Assembly (NCBI GenBank): GCA_963676565.1
Contig: OY781089.1
Coordinates: forward strand, 1,120,001 to 1,184,000
Direction: 5' to 3'
From: Halarcobacter sp.
GTDB lineage: Bacteria; Campylobacterota; Campylobacteria; Campylobacterales; Arcobacteraceae
Length of the DNA stretch: 64,000 bases
The position numbers and the translations under genes are program-made. Shown here one piece after another: positions 1,725 through 7,215 of this stretch; position 1 is the stretch's first letter, and the number at the start of each line of letters is the position of its first letter. A model generated the notes under the pieces. That model was not told the origin of the DNA and made no database searches. It saw only the letters and a list, made by a program, of their open reading frames with translations.

Positions 1725-3050
1725 ATGAGTATGTTTTGTTATCAATGTGAAATGAGTTCACCAAACGGTTGTGGTTCAAACGGAGCAAATATAGGAGTAT
1801 GTGGTAAAGATGAAAATCTAGCAAGATTGCAAGATATTATGATTTTTGGTTTAAAAGGTTTAAGTGCATACAGAGAACATTTAAATGAATTAAGACCGCA
1901 AGAAACAAAAAATGTTGATGATGTTATGAGTGAGACATTATATTTTACACTTACAAATGTAAATTTTAATTTTGATGATCATATTAATCAACTTATGAAA
2001 GTAGGAAGTGCGGGTGTTGAGGTTATGGATAAATTATCAAATGCACACACCAATAAATTTGGAATTCCATCGCCAGTTAAAGTTACACAAAATAAAGTTG
2101 AAGGTAAAGCAATCTTAGTTTCAGGACACAATCTTGAGATGTTAGAAAAACTTTTAATTGCAACACAAGATAAAGGTATAAATGTATATACGCATTCTGA
2201 AATGTTACCAGCTCATGGATATCCAGAATTAAAAAAATATGAACATCTAAAAGGAAATGTTGGAAAAGCATGGTTTGACCAAGCTCAACTAATGAAAAGG
2301 TTTAATGGAACTTTTGTTGTAAACACAAATTGTATCGTACCTCCAAAATCAAATGCTGATTATGTGGATAGAGTTTTTACATATAAAATAGTTGGAATTG
2401 AAGGTGGAAATCAAATTATGGATGATAATTTTGATGAATTGATTGAGAAAACTTTACAATGTGAAGATACGAATATAGATGATAATCTAAGTTTAGTAAC
2501 AGGACATCACTATAAGACTATTTTAACTTTAGCTCCACAAATTTTAGAAGCTGTAGAAGAGGGAAAAATTAGTCAATTTTTTGTAGTTGCAGGTTGCGAT
2601 GCTCCTGGAAAGGCTGGAAATTATTATAGAGAACTAACTGAAAATCTTCCAAATGATTGTGTAATTATTACATCAAGTTGTGGAAAATTTAGATTTAATG
2701 ACATAGATTTTGGAAATGTTCCAGGAACGCAAATACCTAGATATTTAGATTTAGGTCAATGTAATGATTCAAATGGTGCAGTAGAGATAGCAAAGGCAGT
2801 AAGTTCTGCACTTAATACACCAATAAATGATTTACCTATCTCTATTGTATTATCATGGATGGAACAAAAAGCTGTAATTATTCTTTTAGCTTTATTTAGT
2901 TTAGGTGTTAAAAATATCTATTTAGGACCAAAACCACCACAATTTGTAAATGAAGATATATTTAATTTCCTAGCTCAAACTTTTAATTTACATCTAACGG
3001 GTGATGCAAAAGAGGATTTAGAAAAATTATTGATTAAAAAAATCGCTTAA
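1725..3050 (+). CDS. hcp: Hybrid cluster protein (hydroxylamine reductase), short form
   Basis: MFCYQCE N-terminal Cys cluster; SGH, YTHSEMLPAHGYP, GCD, DLGQCND and SWMEQKA motifs. Confidence 0.95.
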   Translation: MSMFCYQCEMSSPNGCGSNGANIGVCGKDENLARLQDIMIFGLKGLSAYREHLNELRPQETKNVDDVMSETLYFTLTNVNFNFDDHINQLMKVGSAGVEVMDKLSNAHTNKFGIPSPVKVTQNKVEGKAILVSGHNLEMLEKLLIATQDKGINVYTHSEMLPAHGYPELKKYEHLKGNVGKAWFDQAQLMKRFNGTFVVNTNCIVPPKSNADYVDRVFTYKIVGIEGGNQIMDDNFDELIEKTLQCEDTNIDDNLSLVTGHHYKTILTLAPQILEAVEEGKISQFFVVAGCDAPGKAGNYYRELTENLPNDCVIITSSCGKFRFNDIDFGNVPGTQIPRYLDLGQCNDSNGAVEIAKAVSSALNTPINDLPISIVLSWMEQKAVIILLALFSLGVKNIYLGPKPPQFVNEDIFNFLAQTFNLHLTGDAKEDLEKLLIKKIA

Positions 3051-3117: not shown

Positions 3118-3879
3118 ATGGCAAAAGATAAAAAAGATTTAAATTTAAAAGAAGTGACATTAACCCTTTCAGGTGGTGGGATTAGAACTGCCGCCTCATT
3201 GGGTGTAATTAAGTATTTAGAAGAAAATGATTATGAAGTTAAGATGATATCTGGGACTAGTGGAGGAGCTATTATTGCTTTATTATATGGACATGGTTTT
3301 TCCATAAAAGAGATAGAGGAATTTTTCTTTACAGTAAACAAATGGGATTTGTTCAATTTTAAATTTAGATTTAACTCCATTCTTAGTTTAAATAAAATTG
3401 AAAGAAAACTAAGAGCTTTTATAAAAGATAAAGAACAAAAAATACCAATACAAATATGTGTTACAAATATTGAAATAGGAAAAGCAGAATACCATACAAA
3501 GGGGGATTTGATTAAATCAACTATTGCATCTTGCTCTTTACTTCCTTATTTTTCTTCCATTGAAATAAATGAAAAGTTTTTTGTTGATGGTGGATATAGT
3601 GATAATCTACCAAATAAAAAACTTTATAAGTTAAACTATCCAAATATTAGTGTAAATGTTAATAATCTACCTAAAATTTTTTCTCACAAAAAAGACTCAT
3701 TACACAGAAGATCTCTTTTTATATTAACCCAAAGTGCAATGAAAAGGGCAAAAAAAAGAGCAGATTTTTTTATCAATATTGATAGTATTTCAGAAATAAA
3801 ACTATTTGATTTTAAAAGTTTTGATTTTGTTTTAGAGCAAGGATATATAAAAGCAAAAGAGATACTAAGAAAAAACTAA
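3118..3879 (+). CDS. Patatin-like phospholipase
   Basis: LSGGGIR, GTSGG nucleophile elbow and DGG motif. Confidence 0.92.
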   Translation: MAKDKKDLNLKEVTLTLSGGGIRTAASLGVIKYLEENDYEVKMISGTSGGAIIALLYGHGFSIKEIEEFFFTVNKWDLFNFKFRFNSILSLNKIERKLRAFIKDKEQKIPIQICVTNIEIGKAEYHTKGDLIKSTIASCSLLPYFSSIEINEKFFVDGGYSDNLPNKKLYKLNYPNISVNVNNLPKIFSHKKDSLHRRSLFILTQSAMKRAKKRADFFINIDSISEIKLFDFKSFDFVLEQGYIKAKEILRKN

Positions 3880-4026
3880 AAAAATATAGATAAAAAAATC
3901 CAAAAAATTAAAAAGTACAAATCTGGTAAATAAAAAATTTAATAAAATAAAACCCTAAAAAAGCCACTTTATTTTTAAAGGAAAATAAATTAAGAAAATT
4001 TTAAGAAAATAAATTTTTTTTTGATT

Positions 4027-4032
4027 TATAAT
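4027..4032 (+). promoter_or_regulatory. Sigma70 -10 element
   Basis: TATAAT preceded by periodic A/T tracts (TTTAAG) typical of Campylobacterota promoters. Confidence 0.6.
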
Positions 4033-4049
4033 TTCGCTCACAAAACGAT

Positions 4050-4118
4050 AAAAGTTTAAAGAAACTCTATTATAGCATTTGGCCGTGCAAATTGATTTCT
4101 TTATTTGTTGTACCAAAA
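4050..4118 (+). ncRNA. Candidate structured 5'-leader RNA element, copy 1
   Basis: Core AGCATTTGGCCGTGCA (4074-4089) enclosed by stem TAAAGAAA/TTTCTTTA (4057-4064/4096-4103). Downstream TTGTACCAAAA is complementary to the core. A second copy lies at about 4961-5047. Confidence 0.55.
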
Positions 4119-4159
4119 GTACGTTTGTATTATTAGTTGTTGACAACTGGAGAATAAAA

Positions 4160-4435
4160 ATGTTTAAAAAAATTGCATTATCTGTTTTATTGATTTCAGC
4201 TTTTGCATATGCTCAAGATGAGCAAATGAGTTTAGAAGATAAATACAATGCATGTAGTGAAAGCTATGAACAATGCTTAGTAAAATGTGAAGAATCTAAC
4301 GCAAATGCAGAAGAGTGCGGGGTAAAATGTGAAGACTTATTTTATCAATGTAATGAAAAAGTTGATCAAGAATTAGATGAATCTAGTGAAAAAGTTGATC
4401 AAGAAGTAGTAGAAGAATCAAATAGTAATCAATAA
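4160..4435 (+). CDS. Small secreted acidic protein with six Cys
   Basis: GGAG RBS and ATG at 4160; signal peptide MFKKIALSVLLISAFAYA; C-x6-C-x3-C-x9-C-x3-C-x6-C. Confidence 0.85.
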   Translation: MFKKIALSVLLISAFAYAQDEQMSLEDKYNACSESYEQCLVKCEESNANAEECGVKCEDLFYQCNEKVDQELDESSEKVDQEVVEESNSNQ

Positions 4436-4444
4436 GGTTAATAT

Positions 4445-4867
4445 TTGAAAACAAACATCTATAAAAAACTTGTAAGACAATATTATGAAGAGTTATGGAA
4501 TAAAAAGTCAAAAGCCTTGATTGAAGAGCTTTTTACTGATGATATAGAGTTTCATGGTTCTTTGAATATTGATACAAAGGGAAAAAAAGAGTTTGAAAAT
4601 TATATGGATGCAATATTAAAAGGTATACCTAATTTACACCATGGAATTGAAATTCTTTTAGAGGAAAATGCAACAATTGCTGTAAGAGCTATTTATAATG
4701 GAACTCATAGTGGTAAATTATTCGATTATGAAGCTTCAAATAATAGAATAAAATACAATGGGGCATCTTTTTTTAAATTTAGAGATGAAAAGATTTCAAA
4801 TATTTGGGTTTTAGGAGATCTTGCAACCTTACACAAACAGATTGTAAGTACTAAAAAATCCCAATAA
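4445..4867 (+). CDS. SnoaL-like ester cyclase (NTF2-fold) family protein
   Basis: LVRQYYEELWN, GTHSG and F..EKISNIWVLGD patterns; TTG start with AAGG RBS. Confidence 0.85.
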   Translation: MKTNIYKKLVRQYYEELWNKKSKALIEELFTDDIEFHGSLNIDTKGKKEFENYMDAILKGIPNLHHGIEILLEENATIAVRAIYNGTHSGKLFDYEASNNRIKYNGASFFKFRDEKISNIWVLGDLATLHKQIVSTKKSQ

Positions 4868-4945
4868 GGTCCCATATAATAGGCCTTTGATAGGTTCTGC
4901 TTATTTTTTAAGTTTTTTTTTAGATTTTTTCTTTTTTTTATAGAT

Positions 4946-4951
4946 TATAAT
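4946..4951 (+). promoter_or_regulatory. Sigma70 -10 element
   Basis: TATAAT after T-tracts and TTTAAG, just upstream of leader element copy 2. Confidence 0.6.
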
Positions 4952-4960
4952 TATGTAATT

Positions 4961-5047
4961 AAAAGTTAAAATGAGAATTTCTGAAAACCTATCAAAGCAT
5001 TTGGCCGTGCATTTTTTTAAGATTTTCAGAAATTGATGTACCCAAAA
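4961..5047 (+). ncRNA. Candidate structured 5'-leader RNA element, copy 2
   Basis: Core AGCATTTGGCCGTGCA (4996-5011) inside a perfect 12-bp stem AATTTCTGAAAA/TTTTCAGAAATT (4976-4987/5023-5034); ATGTACCCAAAA follows. Confidence 0.55.
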
Positions 5048-5102
5048 TTGAGTGTTTTAATACTAACACAATAACCTTAGTTTTTAGTTAATTGGAGTAG
5101 AA

Positions 5103-5144
5103 ATGAAAATAGGTTATCTACATATGTTATTTATCAATTTATAG
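5103..5144 (+). CDS. Possible 13-aa short ORF (MKIGYLHMLFINL)
   Basis: GGAG RBS at 5094-5097 is correctly spaced to ATG 5103; the stop is 8 nt before the next ORF. Confidence 0.35.
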   Translation: MKIGYLHMLFINL

Positions 5145-5152
5145 AGCCTAAG

Positions 5153-5383
5153 ATGGTTACTAGATCTATTGATGATTTAATATCTAACTATATACTTGAT
5201 GAGCCAGTACAAATATTGGTTAATGAAATAACAAATCATATAAAATTTTATAATGATTATGATTCAGCAATTAAATTAATATTAGCAAATAATCTAAATA
5301 TAGAAAATATAGTTAGAAATACAGCACGACTTAAAACGAATCAGATTGTTGAATTAGCGTCAAAGCTAATTTCTATGAGATAA
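5153..5383 (+). CDS. Small hypothetical helical protein, paralogue of 5598-5807
   Basis: 76-aa ORF; aligns by eye with the ORF at 5598. Confidence 0.7.
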   Translation: MVTRSIDDLISNYILDEPVQILVNEITNHIKFYNDYDSAIKLILANNLNIENIVRNTARLKTNQIVELASKLISMR

Positions 5384-5407
5384 TAAAGATATATTAGGAA
5401 AGGTAAA

Positions 5408-5608
5408 ATGGATTCAATTATTTATGAATTAAGAGCAAACGATATCAAAGAAGATGATATTCAATTTATAATGGAAAAAGTTAAAAATCGAATATCAGAA
5501 CAAAATATTGATATTGAACTTGAAAAATTAGGTTATCCAAAAGTTTTCACAGTTGATTATGATGATTATAGCTATGAATACGATGTGGATGAAGATGATG
5601 AGTTCTAA
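5408..5608 (+). CDS. Small acidic hypothetical protein
   Basis: 66-aa ORF with AAGG RBS, ELEKLGYPKVF motif and a D/E/Y-rich tail. Confidence 0.75.
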   Translation: MDSIIYELRANDIKEDDIQFIMEKVKNRISEQNIDIELEKLGYPKVFTVDYDDYSYEYDVDEDDEF

Positions 5609-5807
5609 TACAATAAATAATCTAAACACAAATGAATTGATTCATCAGATACTATATTTAGTTAAATATAAAAAAGATTTTAAACTAGCAGCACAGGTTA
5701 TGAAAGATAATCTAATCTCAATAGAAGATTTGAGTGAAAAAACATTAAAACTTTCACAACTAGAGCTTGCAAAAATAGCTGATGCAATAATTGAGAATAA
5801 AAGATAA
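5598..5807 (+). CDS. Small hypothetical helical protein
   Basis: Probable start MSSN overlaps the upstream stop; paralogue of 5153-5383. Confidence 0.7.
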   Translation: MSSNTINNLNTNELIHQILYLVKYKKDFKLAAQVMKDNLISIEDLSEKTLKLSQLELAKIADAIIENKR

Positions 5808-5911: not shown

Positions 5912-6349
5912 ATGACAAATATAGTAGAAAATTTAAAACAATTACAAGCAGATGCACATGCAATGTATGTAAAAGTACACAATTATCATTGGAATATTGA
6001 GGGTATGGACTTTTATCCTGTACACAATCAAACAGAAGAGATTTATACAAAGTTTTCAATGCTTTATGATGACCTTGCAGAAAGAATTTTACAATTAGGT
6101 GCAAAACCATATTTAACTTTATCTGATTTAGTTAATACTACAAAAATAGAAGAGGAATCTAATTCAAGTTTTAGATCTAAAGAGGTTGTAGAAAAAATTG
6201 TAAATGATTACAACTATTTTTTAAGATCATTTAGAGCTTTAAGTGAAATTGCAGGAGAATCAGGAGATAAAACAACTGAAGCTTTTGCAGATGAAAATGT
6301 AGCTAAACTTGAAAAAGATTTATGGATGATTGGAAATATGCTTAAGTAA
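5912..6349 (+). CDS. dps: Dps / DNA starvation protection ferritin-like protein
   Basis: HNYHWNI.G..FY.VH, DDLAERI and LEKDLWM motifs. Confidence 0.95.
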   Translation: MTNIVENLKQLQADAHAMYVKVHNYHWNIEGMDFYPVHNQTEEIYTKFSMLYDDLAERILQLGAKPYLTLSDLVNTTKIEEESNSSFRSKEVVEKIVNDYNYFLRSFRALSEIAGESGDKTTEAFADENVAKLEKDLWMIGNMLK

Positions 6350-6369: not shown

Positions 6370-7215
6370 ATGGAAACACTTGAATTTAACAATTATATTG
6401 TAGCTTTCCTACTAACCTTATTTGCAGGACTATCGACAAGTATAGGAGCAGTTATTGCATTTTTTTCAAAAACAAAAACTGAAAAATTCTTATCTTTAGG
6501 ATTGGGTTTTTCAGCTGGTGTTATGATATATGTATCTTTTATGGAGATATTACAAAAATCTGCAGAGTCTTTTACACAATTAGTCTCAAGTGAAGTAAAA
6601 GGTGAATTTCTATCATTGGTTTGCTTTTTTTTAGGTATTGCAATTATTGCAATTATTGATAGACTTATCCCACAAGATGTAAACCCCCATGAACCAAAAT
6701 CAGAAGAGCAGTTAGAAGAGTTAAAACCTGATAATAAAAACAATGTTATATTAGATAGTAGTTTAAAAAGAACAGGTGTTTTTACAGCTTTAGCAATAGG
6801 TATTCATAATTTCCCTGAAGGGTTTGCAACTTTTATTTCCTCTTTAGATAACCTAACCCTTGGTTTAAGTATTGCTTTGGCCATTGCTATTCATAATATT
6901 CCAGAAGGGATGGCAGTCTCTTTACCTATTTATCATGCAACAGGAGATAAGAAAAAGGCATTTTGGTATGCAACTTTTTCTGGCTTTGCCGAACCAATAG
7001 GAGCAGTGATAGGTTTTTTTATATTATTTCCTTTTATGGGTGAGGCTACTTTAGGTGTAACTTTTGGGCTTGTAGCTGGAATTATGATTTATATCTCCTT
7101 TGATGAACTTTTACCTGCAGCTAGAGTTTATGGAAATGCTCATACAACTATTGCTGGTTTAATCTTAGGTATGTTTATCATGGCAATTAGTTTATTAGCA
7201 TTTAAATTTGTTTGA
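6370..7215 (+). CDS. zupT: ZIP-family zinc transporter ZupT
   Basis: GFSAGVM, HNFPEG, AIAIHNIPEG and DELLP motifs. Confidence 0.93.
   Translation: METLEFNNYIVAFLLTLFAGLSTSIGAVIAFFSKTKTEKFLSLGLGFSAGVMIYVSFMEILQKSAESFTQLVSSEVKGEFLSLVCFFLGIAIIAIIDRLIPQDVNPHEPKSEEQLEELKPDNKNNVILDSSLKRTGVFTALAIGIHNFPEGFATFISSLDNLTLGLSIALAIAIHNIPEGMAVSLPIYHATGDKKKAFWYATFSGFAEPIGAVIGFFILFPFMGEATLGVTFGLVAGIMIYISFDELLPAARVYGNAHTTIAGLILGMFIMAISLLAFKFV

Follow-up and report, generated by a model that had tools for sequence, protein, structure and literature searches.

We describe a structured leader RNA of ~110 nt, matched by no family in Rfam 15, that lies behind predicted promoters and ahead of genes for small secreted cysteine-rich proteins in Arcobacteraceae. 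It occurs twice in a 64,000-nucleotide stretch of a Halarcobacter sp. genome (assembly GCA_963676565.1, contig OY781089.1, positions 1,120,001 to 1,184,000 of the forward strand), which we refer to as the window and whose numbering is used throughout. We gathered 72 distinct examples (79 matches) from Arcobacteraceae genomes and metagenomes, and these share three strongly covarying helices, P1, P2 and P3, followed by a segment complementary to the start region of the downstream gene, with which it probably forms a fourth helix, P4. We consider it likely that the motif is a cis-acting leader that controls translation, either as a riboswitch or as a leader bound by a protein.

Two copies of the motif and covariation of its helices

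The initial annotation of this region drew attention to a 16-mer, AGCATTTGGCCGTGCA, that is present twice, each time between a TATAAT and a GGAG. This is correct, with both copies exact and on the + strand, and all of the flanking words are where they had been placed (Table 1). With up to three mismatches allowed there are two matches to AGCATTTGGCCGTGCA where 0.19 are expected, and two or more matches arise in only one of 100 shuffles; the 15-mer core has just these two copies in the 3,340,668-base genome when two mismatches are allowed. An alignment of copy 1 with copy 2 spans 176 columns with a mean column identity of 76%. The stems enclosing the 16-mer differ in sequence between the copies yet both pair, as had been noted, and this enclosing stem (P1) covaries across the relatives. 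The single-sequence folds of the two copies are unexceptional (z -0.5 to -1.5).

In the alignment of the 72 distinct sequences, which is pooled and fitted to a covariance model, the ten pairs of P1 are paired in 89.8% of cells, the four pairs of P2 (a GCAU/GUGC hairpin) in 98.6%, and the six pairs of P3 (a GUACUC/GAGUAC hairpin), all of them changed on both sides, in 94.9%. For P1-P3 together, 93.1% of cells are paired compared with 77.4% in shuffled controls, two-sided changes are present in 20 of the 20 pairs, and none of 500 shuffles reaches any of five covariation measures. Sliding the partners against each other reduces pairing to 34.5-50.8%, and a smaller alignment (A4) gives the same picture. 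The proposal that selection acts on RNA structure is thus well borne out, and the family search, covariation model and tally of downstream genes that had been suggested as checks returned both significant covariation and a recurrent gene. RNAalifold run on a plain MAFFT alignment (A2) saw only P2 (four pairs) because P1 is misaligned there, and model-based alignments were used instead.

P2 sits within the 16-mer as GCAU-UUGGCC-GUGC. Its base pairs are swapped from GC to UA in 17 sequences, from GC to AU in four, from CG to UA in five and from AU to GC in two, and the loop U-UGGC-(C/G)-G is kept despite at least six versions of the stem (GCAU/GUGC, ACAU/GUGU, UCAU/GUGA, UUGU/GCAA, UAAU/GUUA and AUAU/AUAU). 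Neither J1/2 nor J2/1, the strands that link P1 to P2, is constant in sequence or length, and they often pair; we therefore view P1-P2 as a single long hairpin, irregular along its length and conserved at its tip. A coding frame that runs from a TTG through the core (LAVQ... or LAVH...) was also considered, and its conservation stops at the core.

A second helix, between the core and the 3' segment, had been put forward as a switch or a pseudoknot, together with a loose resemblance to SAM-II and SAM-V aptamers. This helix can be drawn in both window copies but fails across the relatives. The UUUGG:CCAAA part is confined to this genome (G000) and a sister (G086), and elsewhere the bases that follow GUAC are the 5' strand of P3. 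The GUGCA:UGUAC part is pairable in 80.5% of cells compared with 80.7% when partners are shuffled; as many as 314 of 500 shuffles attain the former figure, so the pairing equals the control; the sixth pair taken as compensatory (GUGCAA/UUGUAC versus GUGCAU/AUGUAC) is paired in just 48.6% of cells. Its partners, moreover, belong to P2 and P3. We reject the second helix as a conserved feature, and the SAM-II/SAM-V analogy with it. An H-type pseudoknot of the SAM-II/SAM-V kind, joining the 3' tail to the P1 loop, was tried as a candidate and dropped on the same figures (80.5% versus 80.7%), as the loop-tail helix shows no covariation and no Rfam score stands behind either class. The accompanying remark that the downstream genes are not concerned with methionine or S-adenosylmethionine is accurate, as they encode a six-cysteine secreted protein, a SnoaL-like protein and small orphan proteins.

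Comparison with Rfam 15 gave no match at the gathering score anywhere in the 64-kb window, and in the region 3800-5500 just seven chance-level matches were obtained (E 0.4-3.1, far under the cut-offs), of which those to mir-3167 and rox1 simply fit the P1 hairpin. Seven related loci of different genera gave no match at E≤0.1. The Rfam check advised at the outset therefore leaves the motif without an Rfam 15 family, in the window and at the seven related loci.

Distribution

When searched with one mismatch allowed, the core pattern is found in 20 of 184 family genomes, mostly twice per genome, on the same strand and 0.8-11 kb apart. The search gave 31 distinct segments, of which three (L012, L015 and L049) lie inside coding sequence and were dropped; the 28 left were used to build a covariance model, R1, which places the motif in 33 of 151 family genomes and in 8 of 22 genera. 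A second model, R2, under which the P1-P2 domain of window copy 2 scores 92.2 bits, finds the motif in three of 151 genomes sampled over the order. Two of these belong to the home family; the third (G302) is from another family, is the sole match among that family's 61 genomes, and is probably a transferred locus. A core search with two mismatches was mostly noise (143 of 184 genomes, many matches intragenic, and controls matched too) and was not used.

To leave the 5' part unbiased, the pattern used to scan public genomes and metagenomes was taken from the 3' side alone; it yielded 23 plus 54 stretches. The full motif is present at E≤0.001 in 34 of these 77 loci. Among them, the named records are from Arcobacteraceae, uncultured Campylobacterales, Arcobacter sp. 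YIC-310 and Sulfurospirillum arcachonense DSM 9755; the rest look like chance matches in unrelated phyla.

Position behind a promoter

The motif lies in a predicted 5' leader, in line with the initial annotation. Of 71 distinct elements, 67 have an exact TATAAT ahead of P1, at a distance of 7-38 nt (19-38 nt in 65 of them), and the four elements without one are all directly 3' of another gene. The promoters share a layout in which two TT(A/C/T)AG words ~11 nt apart are followed by a T-rich spacer and the TATAAT; a loose form of the paired words (TT[ACT]AG-N-T[TC][ACT]AG) is present 5' of TATAAT in all 67 relatives having TATAAT, this being a permissive pattern in AT-rich DNA. Directly after the -10 box, 39 of the 67 promoters have a TAGAATAAGGAA-like word that contains GGA and is absent from both window copies. 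The presence of this word and of the TT(A/C/T)AG words suggests an extra layer of control, by a transcription factor or of CsrA type.

Assemblies of three metatranscriptome libraries from related organisms cover the locus in part, with contigs at 4050-4317 and 4057-4442, both of which join the leader to the gene, and at 4961-5136; these contigs begin 10-18 nt past the predicted transcription starts. They are weak support for a transcribed leader.

These data also bear on an interpretation at the level of DNA, whereby the element is an operator or part of a promoter, transcription starts at a TATACT word that follows P3, and folding of the RNA is a side effect. The sequence TTTATACT after P3 does look like a -10 box, the elements lacking an upstream TATAAT adjoin another gene, and the inverted core seen in one genome (G157, below) would be tolerable for a symmetric DNA site. 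Nevertheless, all 20 pairs carry compensatory changes and tolerate G-U on the + strand alone, which points to RNA; the TATACT word forms one side of P4, which requires its presence in the mRNA; and the RNA-library contigs span both the element and the gene. We thus regard a purely DNA-level role as very improbable.

A probable helix at the translation start

P3 is directly followed by a conserved block, typically CAUUUAUACU; its reverse complement, AGUAUAAAUG, makes up the spacer and start codon of the gene behind the leader. We examined the corresponding P4 pairing in 34 leaders with a P3-to-AUG spacing of 40-60 nt, setting the last base of P3 and the next 9 nt against the 10 nt that end at the AUG. 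In this register a mean of 8.24 of 10 positions pair, compared with 2.94-5.53 in eight slid registers, with at least nine pairs in 17 of the 34 leaders and at least eight in 25. Relative to shuffles, 16 of 40 leaders have an RNAduplex energy at z≤-2.5. Two genera have a displaced 3' strand, and in their folds CUUUUAUA...UAACAAAU pairs with AUUUGUUAUAUAGGAG, covering the ribosome-binding site. The start-region word GGAGTATAAATG occurs just once in this genome, at an unrelated site, and is therefore not a generic start region. Copy 2 of the window is poorer in this respect, with just 7 of 10 positions pairing in register (L068:1501-1608). Judged from complementarity, P4 is a probable helix that sequesters the start site.

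In the model that we favor, each copy would constitute the 5' leader of a transcription unit, the intact unit opening with the gene for a six-cysteine protein that is small, secreted and acidic. In such a leader, the long P1+P2 hairpin with its near-invariant UGGC loop would be succeeded by a short conserved linker, P3, and then the P4 segment. In the default fold the 10 nt after P3 would pair with the spacer and start codon and so hide the translation start, and a signal read by the P1-P2 hairpin or by the linker would set how often the start is exposed. It is from these features that we infer a regulatory role for the leader.

Several observations weigh against this model. P4 lacks two-sided changes and rests on conserved complementarity plus a few one-sided, wobble-compatible changes. 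In partition-function calculations, pairing of the segment from the ribosome-binding site to the AUG is 0.57 in 43 leaders and 0.51 in 150 genes of this genome, which is a slight difference (Mann-Whitney p 0.016) among related, and hence non-independent, sequences. We found no alternative helix with covariation by which the start site would be freed. P1-P2, a hairpin tipped by a conserved loop, has no multi-helix junction, which makes it less typical of small-molecule aptamers; moreover, the core is missing from genomes that keep the gene (below), and window copy 2 has no intact gene to control. As regards transcription, the RNA contigs come from relatives and may include DNA carry-over, and a fourth contig (4914-5132) begins upstream of the copy-2 promoter.

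Further pairings were sought in and around the leader. A candidate anti-sequestor, UUGGUGUA:UAUACUAA, which would join the linker and the start of P3 to the end of the anti-start block, was rejected, as it is pairable in 81.8% of cells compared with 82.0% in shuffles and shows conservation only. No terminator-like site was called in 3880-5200, and a role for P3 as an intrinsic terminator is unsupported.

A constitutive leader would also account for some of these findings. Such a leader would protect the 5' end of the mRNA, or hold translation of an abundant secreted protein at a low level that is fixed or temperature-dependent, with the repeat reflecting a duplicated promoter and untranslated region (UTR). 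The failure to find a covarying alternative fold is consistent with this, P4 is AU-rich and could melt with temperature, unrelated hairpins can replace P1-P2, and the two window copies are clearly paralogous cassettes. Hairpins of the ompA type stabilize the 5' UTRs of abundant envelope-protein mRNAs, and the motif resembles them in having stable 5' hairpins before a gene for a secreted protein. It departs from them in that its loop and linker are conserved across genera, which a stabilizer does not need: the seven to eight near-invariant loop bases and the linker, kept over at least eight genera, exceed the requirements of generic stabilization, and several genomes retain an intact P1-P2 before decayed genes. 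We consider a constitutive role decidedly unlikely.

P1-P2 as an exchangeable module and its possible partners

A further 26 loci with a gene for the cysteine-rich protein were checked, and ten of them have a full-length motif match at E≤0.001. At least ten genomes (G089, G091, G096, G097, G151, G153, G154, G159, G160 and G161) keep the gene, P3 and the anti-start block while the P1-P2 core is absent or replaced; at the loci concerned (L120, L124, L129, L130, L133-L136, L138 and L143) an unrelated hairpin fills the place in some cases and no hairpin does so in one. The P1-P2 core is dispensable in view of these losses and replacements, and because the gene and P3/P4 persist without it, P3/P4 can be regarded as the constant part of the leader and P1-P2 as an exchangeable front module. 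One of the ten loci with a full-length match, in G157 (L131:802-949), has the P1-enclosed segment inverted relative to the gene, with P1, P3 and the post-P3 block in normal orientation. This could be a one-off inversion between the arms of P1, or a hint of a switch at the DNA level.

If translation is controlled through P1-P2, the signal may be a small molecule or a macromolecule. A metabolite or ion riboswitch, in which the UGGC loop of P2 and the internal loops bind a ligand (reporting perhaps envelope, thiol or metal stress) and shift P3/P4, is in keeping with several features of the motif. It has the generic attribute of this class, a conserved covarying structure in a 5' leader, in the form of P1-P3 with an upstream TATAAT; highly conserved unpaired bases are set within covarying stems; a platform that could occlude the start codon is directly downstream; the motif is bound to one gene family; and some neighboring genes have redox or metal functions, namely those for Dps and a ZIP zinc transporter in the window and a DsbA-like gene at another locus (L037). 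Other features fit poorly. There is neither a multi-stem junction nor a supported pseudoknot that would form a pocket, P1-P2 being a single irregular hairpin in which neither the length nor the sequence of the junction strands J1/2 and J2/1 is fixed. Several lineages, moreover, retain the gene after losing or exchanging the sensor part. No ligand can be inferred from the genes, because the proteins behind the leader have no known function. On balance we regard a ligand-binding riboswitch as unlikely.

Riboswitches and leaders known to sequester the ribosome-binding site or start codon include the SAM-II/SAM-V and preQ1 classes and the fourU/ROSE thermometers. The motif is like them in its location in a 5' leader, in having covarying helices around conserved unpaired bases, and in its segment complementary to the start. 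It differs in that it has no Rfam score, a pseudoknot is unsupported, no alternative fold was found, and its sensor-like portion consists of one long hairpin.

The shape of P1-P2, with a variable stem under a conserved apical loop, is at least as compatible with contact by a protein or an RNA as with a small-molecule pocket, and the leader may instead be read by a macromolecule: a protein (an orphan of the cluster, or CsrA) bound at the P2 loop or at GGA sites, or an RNA acting in trans, with effects on translation or on mRNA decay. Contact sites for proteins or RNAs usually look like this, with the loop invariant and the stem variable, and a search of 72 leaders from -60 to +260 found no cis partner of at least 5 nt for the P2 loop at a recurrent position. 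Conserved small genes with no assigned function accompany the motif and, as CsrA prefers GGA motifs, the GGA-containing TAGAATAAGGAA-like word is also suggestive. The motif further resembles protein-binding leaders of the ribosomal-protein and CsrA kinds in having a hairpin with an invariant loop before a start that can be occluded, and in the small conserved genes of its operons. As against CsrA leaders, the P2 loop is without GGA in 72 of 72 P2 regions, and the TAGAATAAGG-like word of 39 of 67 promoters is missing in both window copies. Candidate binders are also lacking; the model of a 76-aa protein of the cluster has no solved-structure match at E≤0.001. As to RNA partners, no intergenic site complementary to the P2 loop is present in this genome, the other CGGCCAA sites all being in long open reading frames (ORFs). 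Control by a macromolecule is thus a possible, if tentative, reading.

Genes downstream of the leader

The next ORF has at least five cysteines in 50 of the 72 distinct elements, and a four-cysteine version is present in four more. The ORFs behind the 50 are 68-119 aa long and encode a signal peptide and an acidic tail, and 24 aligned relatives have six invariant cysteines in the arrangement C-x6-C-x3-C-x8-11-C-x3-C-x6-C. The other 18 elements are followed by short remnants that start like a signal peptide, or lead straight into the next gene of the cluster. Remnants of 5-28 codons behind an intact P1-P2 are found in the second cassette of several genomes of the genus (L062, L064, L066, L067, L069 and L071), and those of sister genomes begin MLKLF or MYKLL. 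In the window, the two copies are a duplication of the whole cassette, of which the second has lost the cysteine-rich gene and has a weakened P3 and P4 with P1-P2 intact (Table 1).

The six-cysteine protein family is present in 57 of 184 family genomes, which represent 13 of 22 genera, and is missing from all 44 genomes of the largest genus. Its members are predicted to form a helical hairpin, and relatives are named only 'hypothetical protein'. Neither Pfam nor NCBIfam matches the cysteine-rich protein, the 76-aa family or the acidic 66-aa protein, and AlphaFold models of the first two (that of the 76-aa family has five helices and a predicted local distance difference test score, pLDDT, of 78.5) have no match in the PDB at E≤0.001; protein-atlas matches, at 0.82, were under the useful range. 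Small orphan genes accompany the leader in most genomes, and some genomes add an M42-like peptidase.

Two side observations concern the cysteine-rich proteins. The exact 91-aa product from the ATG at 4160 is absent from a collection of 15 billion proteins; the gene may be unannotated, or may have been called from an upstream TTG at 4079, inside the RNA core. In G103 (L042:1613-1972) the protein is doubled, with 119 aa and 12 cysteines in two tandem six-cysteine modules.

Within the window, a hybrid-cluster protein gene (1725-3050) is located upstream of the cassettes, and genes for a Dps-like ferritin (5912-6349) and the ZIP zinc transporter (6370-7215) are downstream, on the same strand. These stress- and metal-related neighbors might share the leader's signal.

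Table 1. Positions of leader elements and genes at the two copies of the motif in the window (MFE, minimum free energy)
Feature	Position	Strand	Remarks
Copy 1, two TTAAG words	3990-3994, 4001-4005	+	11 nt apart; candidate promoter-proximal or activator site
Copy 1, TATAAT -10 box	4027-4032	+	predicted transcription start ~4039-4041
Copy 1, AAAAGTT	4050-4056
Copy 1, P1-P2 hairpin domain	4057-4103	+	MFE fold has P1 and P2
Copy 1, P1 (enclosing stem)	4057-4064 with 4096-4103	+	UAAAGAAA/UUUCUUUA
Copy 1, CTAT	4067-4070
Copy 1, 16-mer	4074-4089	+	AGCATTTGGCCGTGCA
Copy 1, P2	4075-4078 with 4085-4088	+	GCAU with GUGC; apical loop UUGGCC 4079-4084; MFE fold and family covariation
Copy 1, GATTT	4094-4098
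Copy 1, 3' word	4109-4118		TGTACCAAAA
Copy 1, P3 hairpin	4110-4122	+	GUAC-CAAAA-GUAC; shortened form of the family GUACUC/GAGUAC stem; MFE fold
Copy 1, anti-start segment (P4 5' strand)	4122-4131	+	CGUUUGUAUU; 9 of 10 positions pair with 4153-4162; helix in MFE folds
Copy 1, GGAG ribosome-binding site	4149-4152	+	read from sequence
Copy 1, P4 3' strand	4153-4162	+	AAUAAAAAUG; start codon at its end; sequence and MFE folds
Gene for 91-aa secreted acidic six-cysteine protein	4160-4435	+	C-x6-C-x3-C-x9-C-x3-C-x6-C; predicted from sequence; no Pfam/NCBIfam family
SnoaL-like protein gene	4445-4867	+	PF07366, E 3.8e-27; recurs in related loci
Copy 2, TTAAG and TTTAG words	4908-4912, 4919-4923	+	spaced by 11 nt; precede the -10 box
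Copy 2, TATAAT -10 box	4946-4951	+	read from sequence
Copy 2, AAAAGTT	4961-4967
Copy 2, P1-P2 domain	4976-5034	+	P2 4997-5000 with 5007-5010; loop 5001-5006
Copy 2, P1 (enclosing stem)	4976-4987 with 5023-5034	+	AAUUUCUGAAAA/UUUUCAGAAAUU
Copy 2, CTAT	4989-4992
Copy 2, 16-mer	4996-5011	+	AGCATTTGGCCGTGCA
Copy 2, GATTT	5021-5025
Copy 2, 3' word	5037-5047		TGTACCCAAAA
Copy 2, weakened P3	5038-5055	+	GUACCC/GAGUGU; two G-U pairs, one C-A mismatch; model alignment
Copy 2, degenerate P4 region	5055-5106	+	contains UUUUAAUACU and the conserved block ACUAAC...CUUAG...UUAGUUAA
Copy 2, GGAG and AUG	5094-5097, 5104-5106	+	inside the degenerate P4 region
13-codon remnant ORF	5104-5145	+	MKIGYLHMLFINL; relatives have the cysteine-rich gene in this place
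76-aa family gene	5153-5383	+	no family match
Gene for acidic 66-aa protein	5408-5608	+	D/E/Y-rich tail; no family match
76-aa family paralogue	within 5553-5807	+	paralogy seen in alignment A9

Relation to earlier candidates and significance

A screen by Stav et al. 2019 (PMC6429828) included Arcobacter sp. L, and its Table S1 (sheet d) lists an unnamed high-ranking candidate, HRC-5, from Arcobacter and environmental sequences only, with 14 examples, a function given as '?', and a location upstream of 'bSCRAP90'. HRC-5 may be the motif described here, a comparison that extends to the table row and not to a sequence or structure; 'bSCRAP90' would fit a small cysteine-rich protein of ~90 aa, this reading of the acronym being a guess. 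The main text of that paper contains no 'HRC-5', 'SCRAP' or 'cysteine', and in two genomes examined the HRC-5 intergenic region was not found at the paper's coordinates. Literature searches found no paper on RNA motifs of Arcobacteraceae and none with 'bSCRAP90'. Apart from Stav et al., the literature on Arcobacter riboswitches shows no sign of the motif at the level of listings, and the main text of Narunsky et al. 2024 (PMC11109978) has no mention of Arcobacter, Epsilonproteobacteria or Campylobacter.

Little has been published on RNA regulation in Arcobacteraceae, as judged from these searches, and the present motif adds a well-supported leader RNA, with 72 distinct examples, three covarying helices and a probable start-sequestering helix. 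Its immediate reach is modest, the motif being narrow in range and its mechanism still to come. A more specific and rather doubtful suggestion is that P1-P2, through its U-UGGC-(C/G)-G loop, acts as the sensor in a new riboswitch or RNA-protein switch restricted to this lineage. A signal from the envelope, thiols or metals would then govern translation of a hitherto unknown family of disulfide-stapled periplasmic mini-proteins and of their orphan partners; if true, this would define a new class of RNA and a new stress regulon in Arcobacteraceae. The leader also provides a handle on an uncharacterized set of genes, comprising the six-cysteine mini-protein, the SnoaL-like protein and the small orphan proteins, and its trigger would reveal when these genes are needed.

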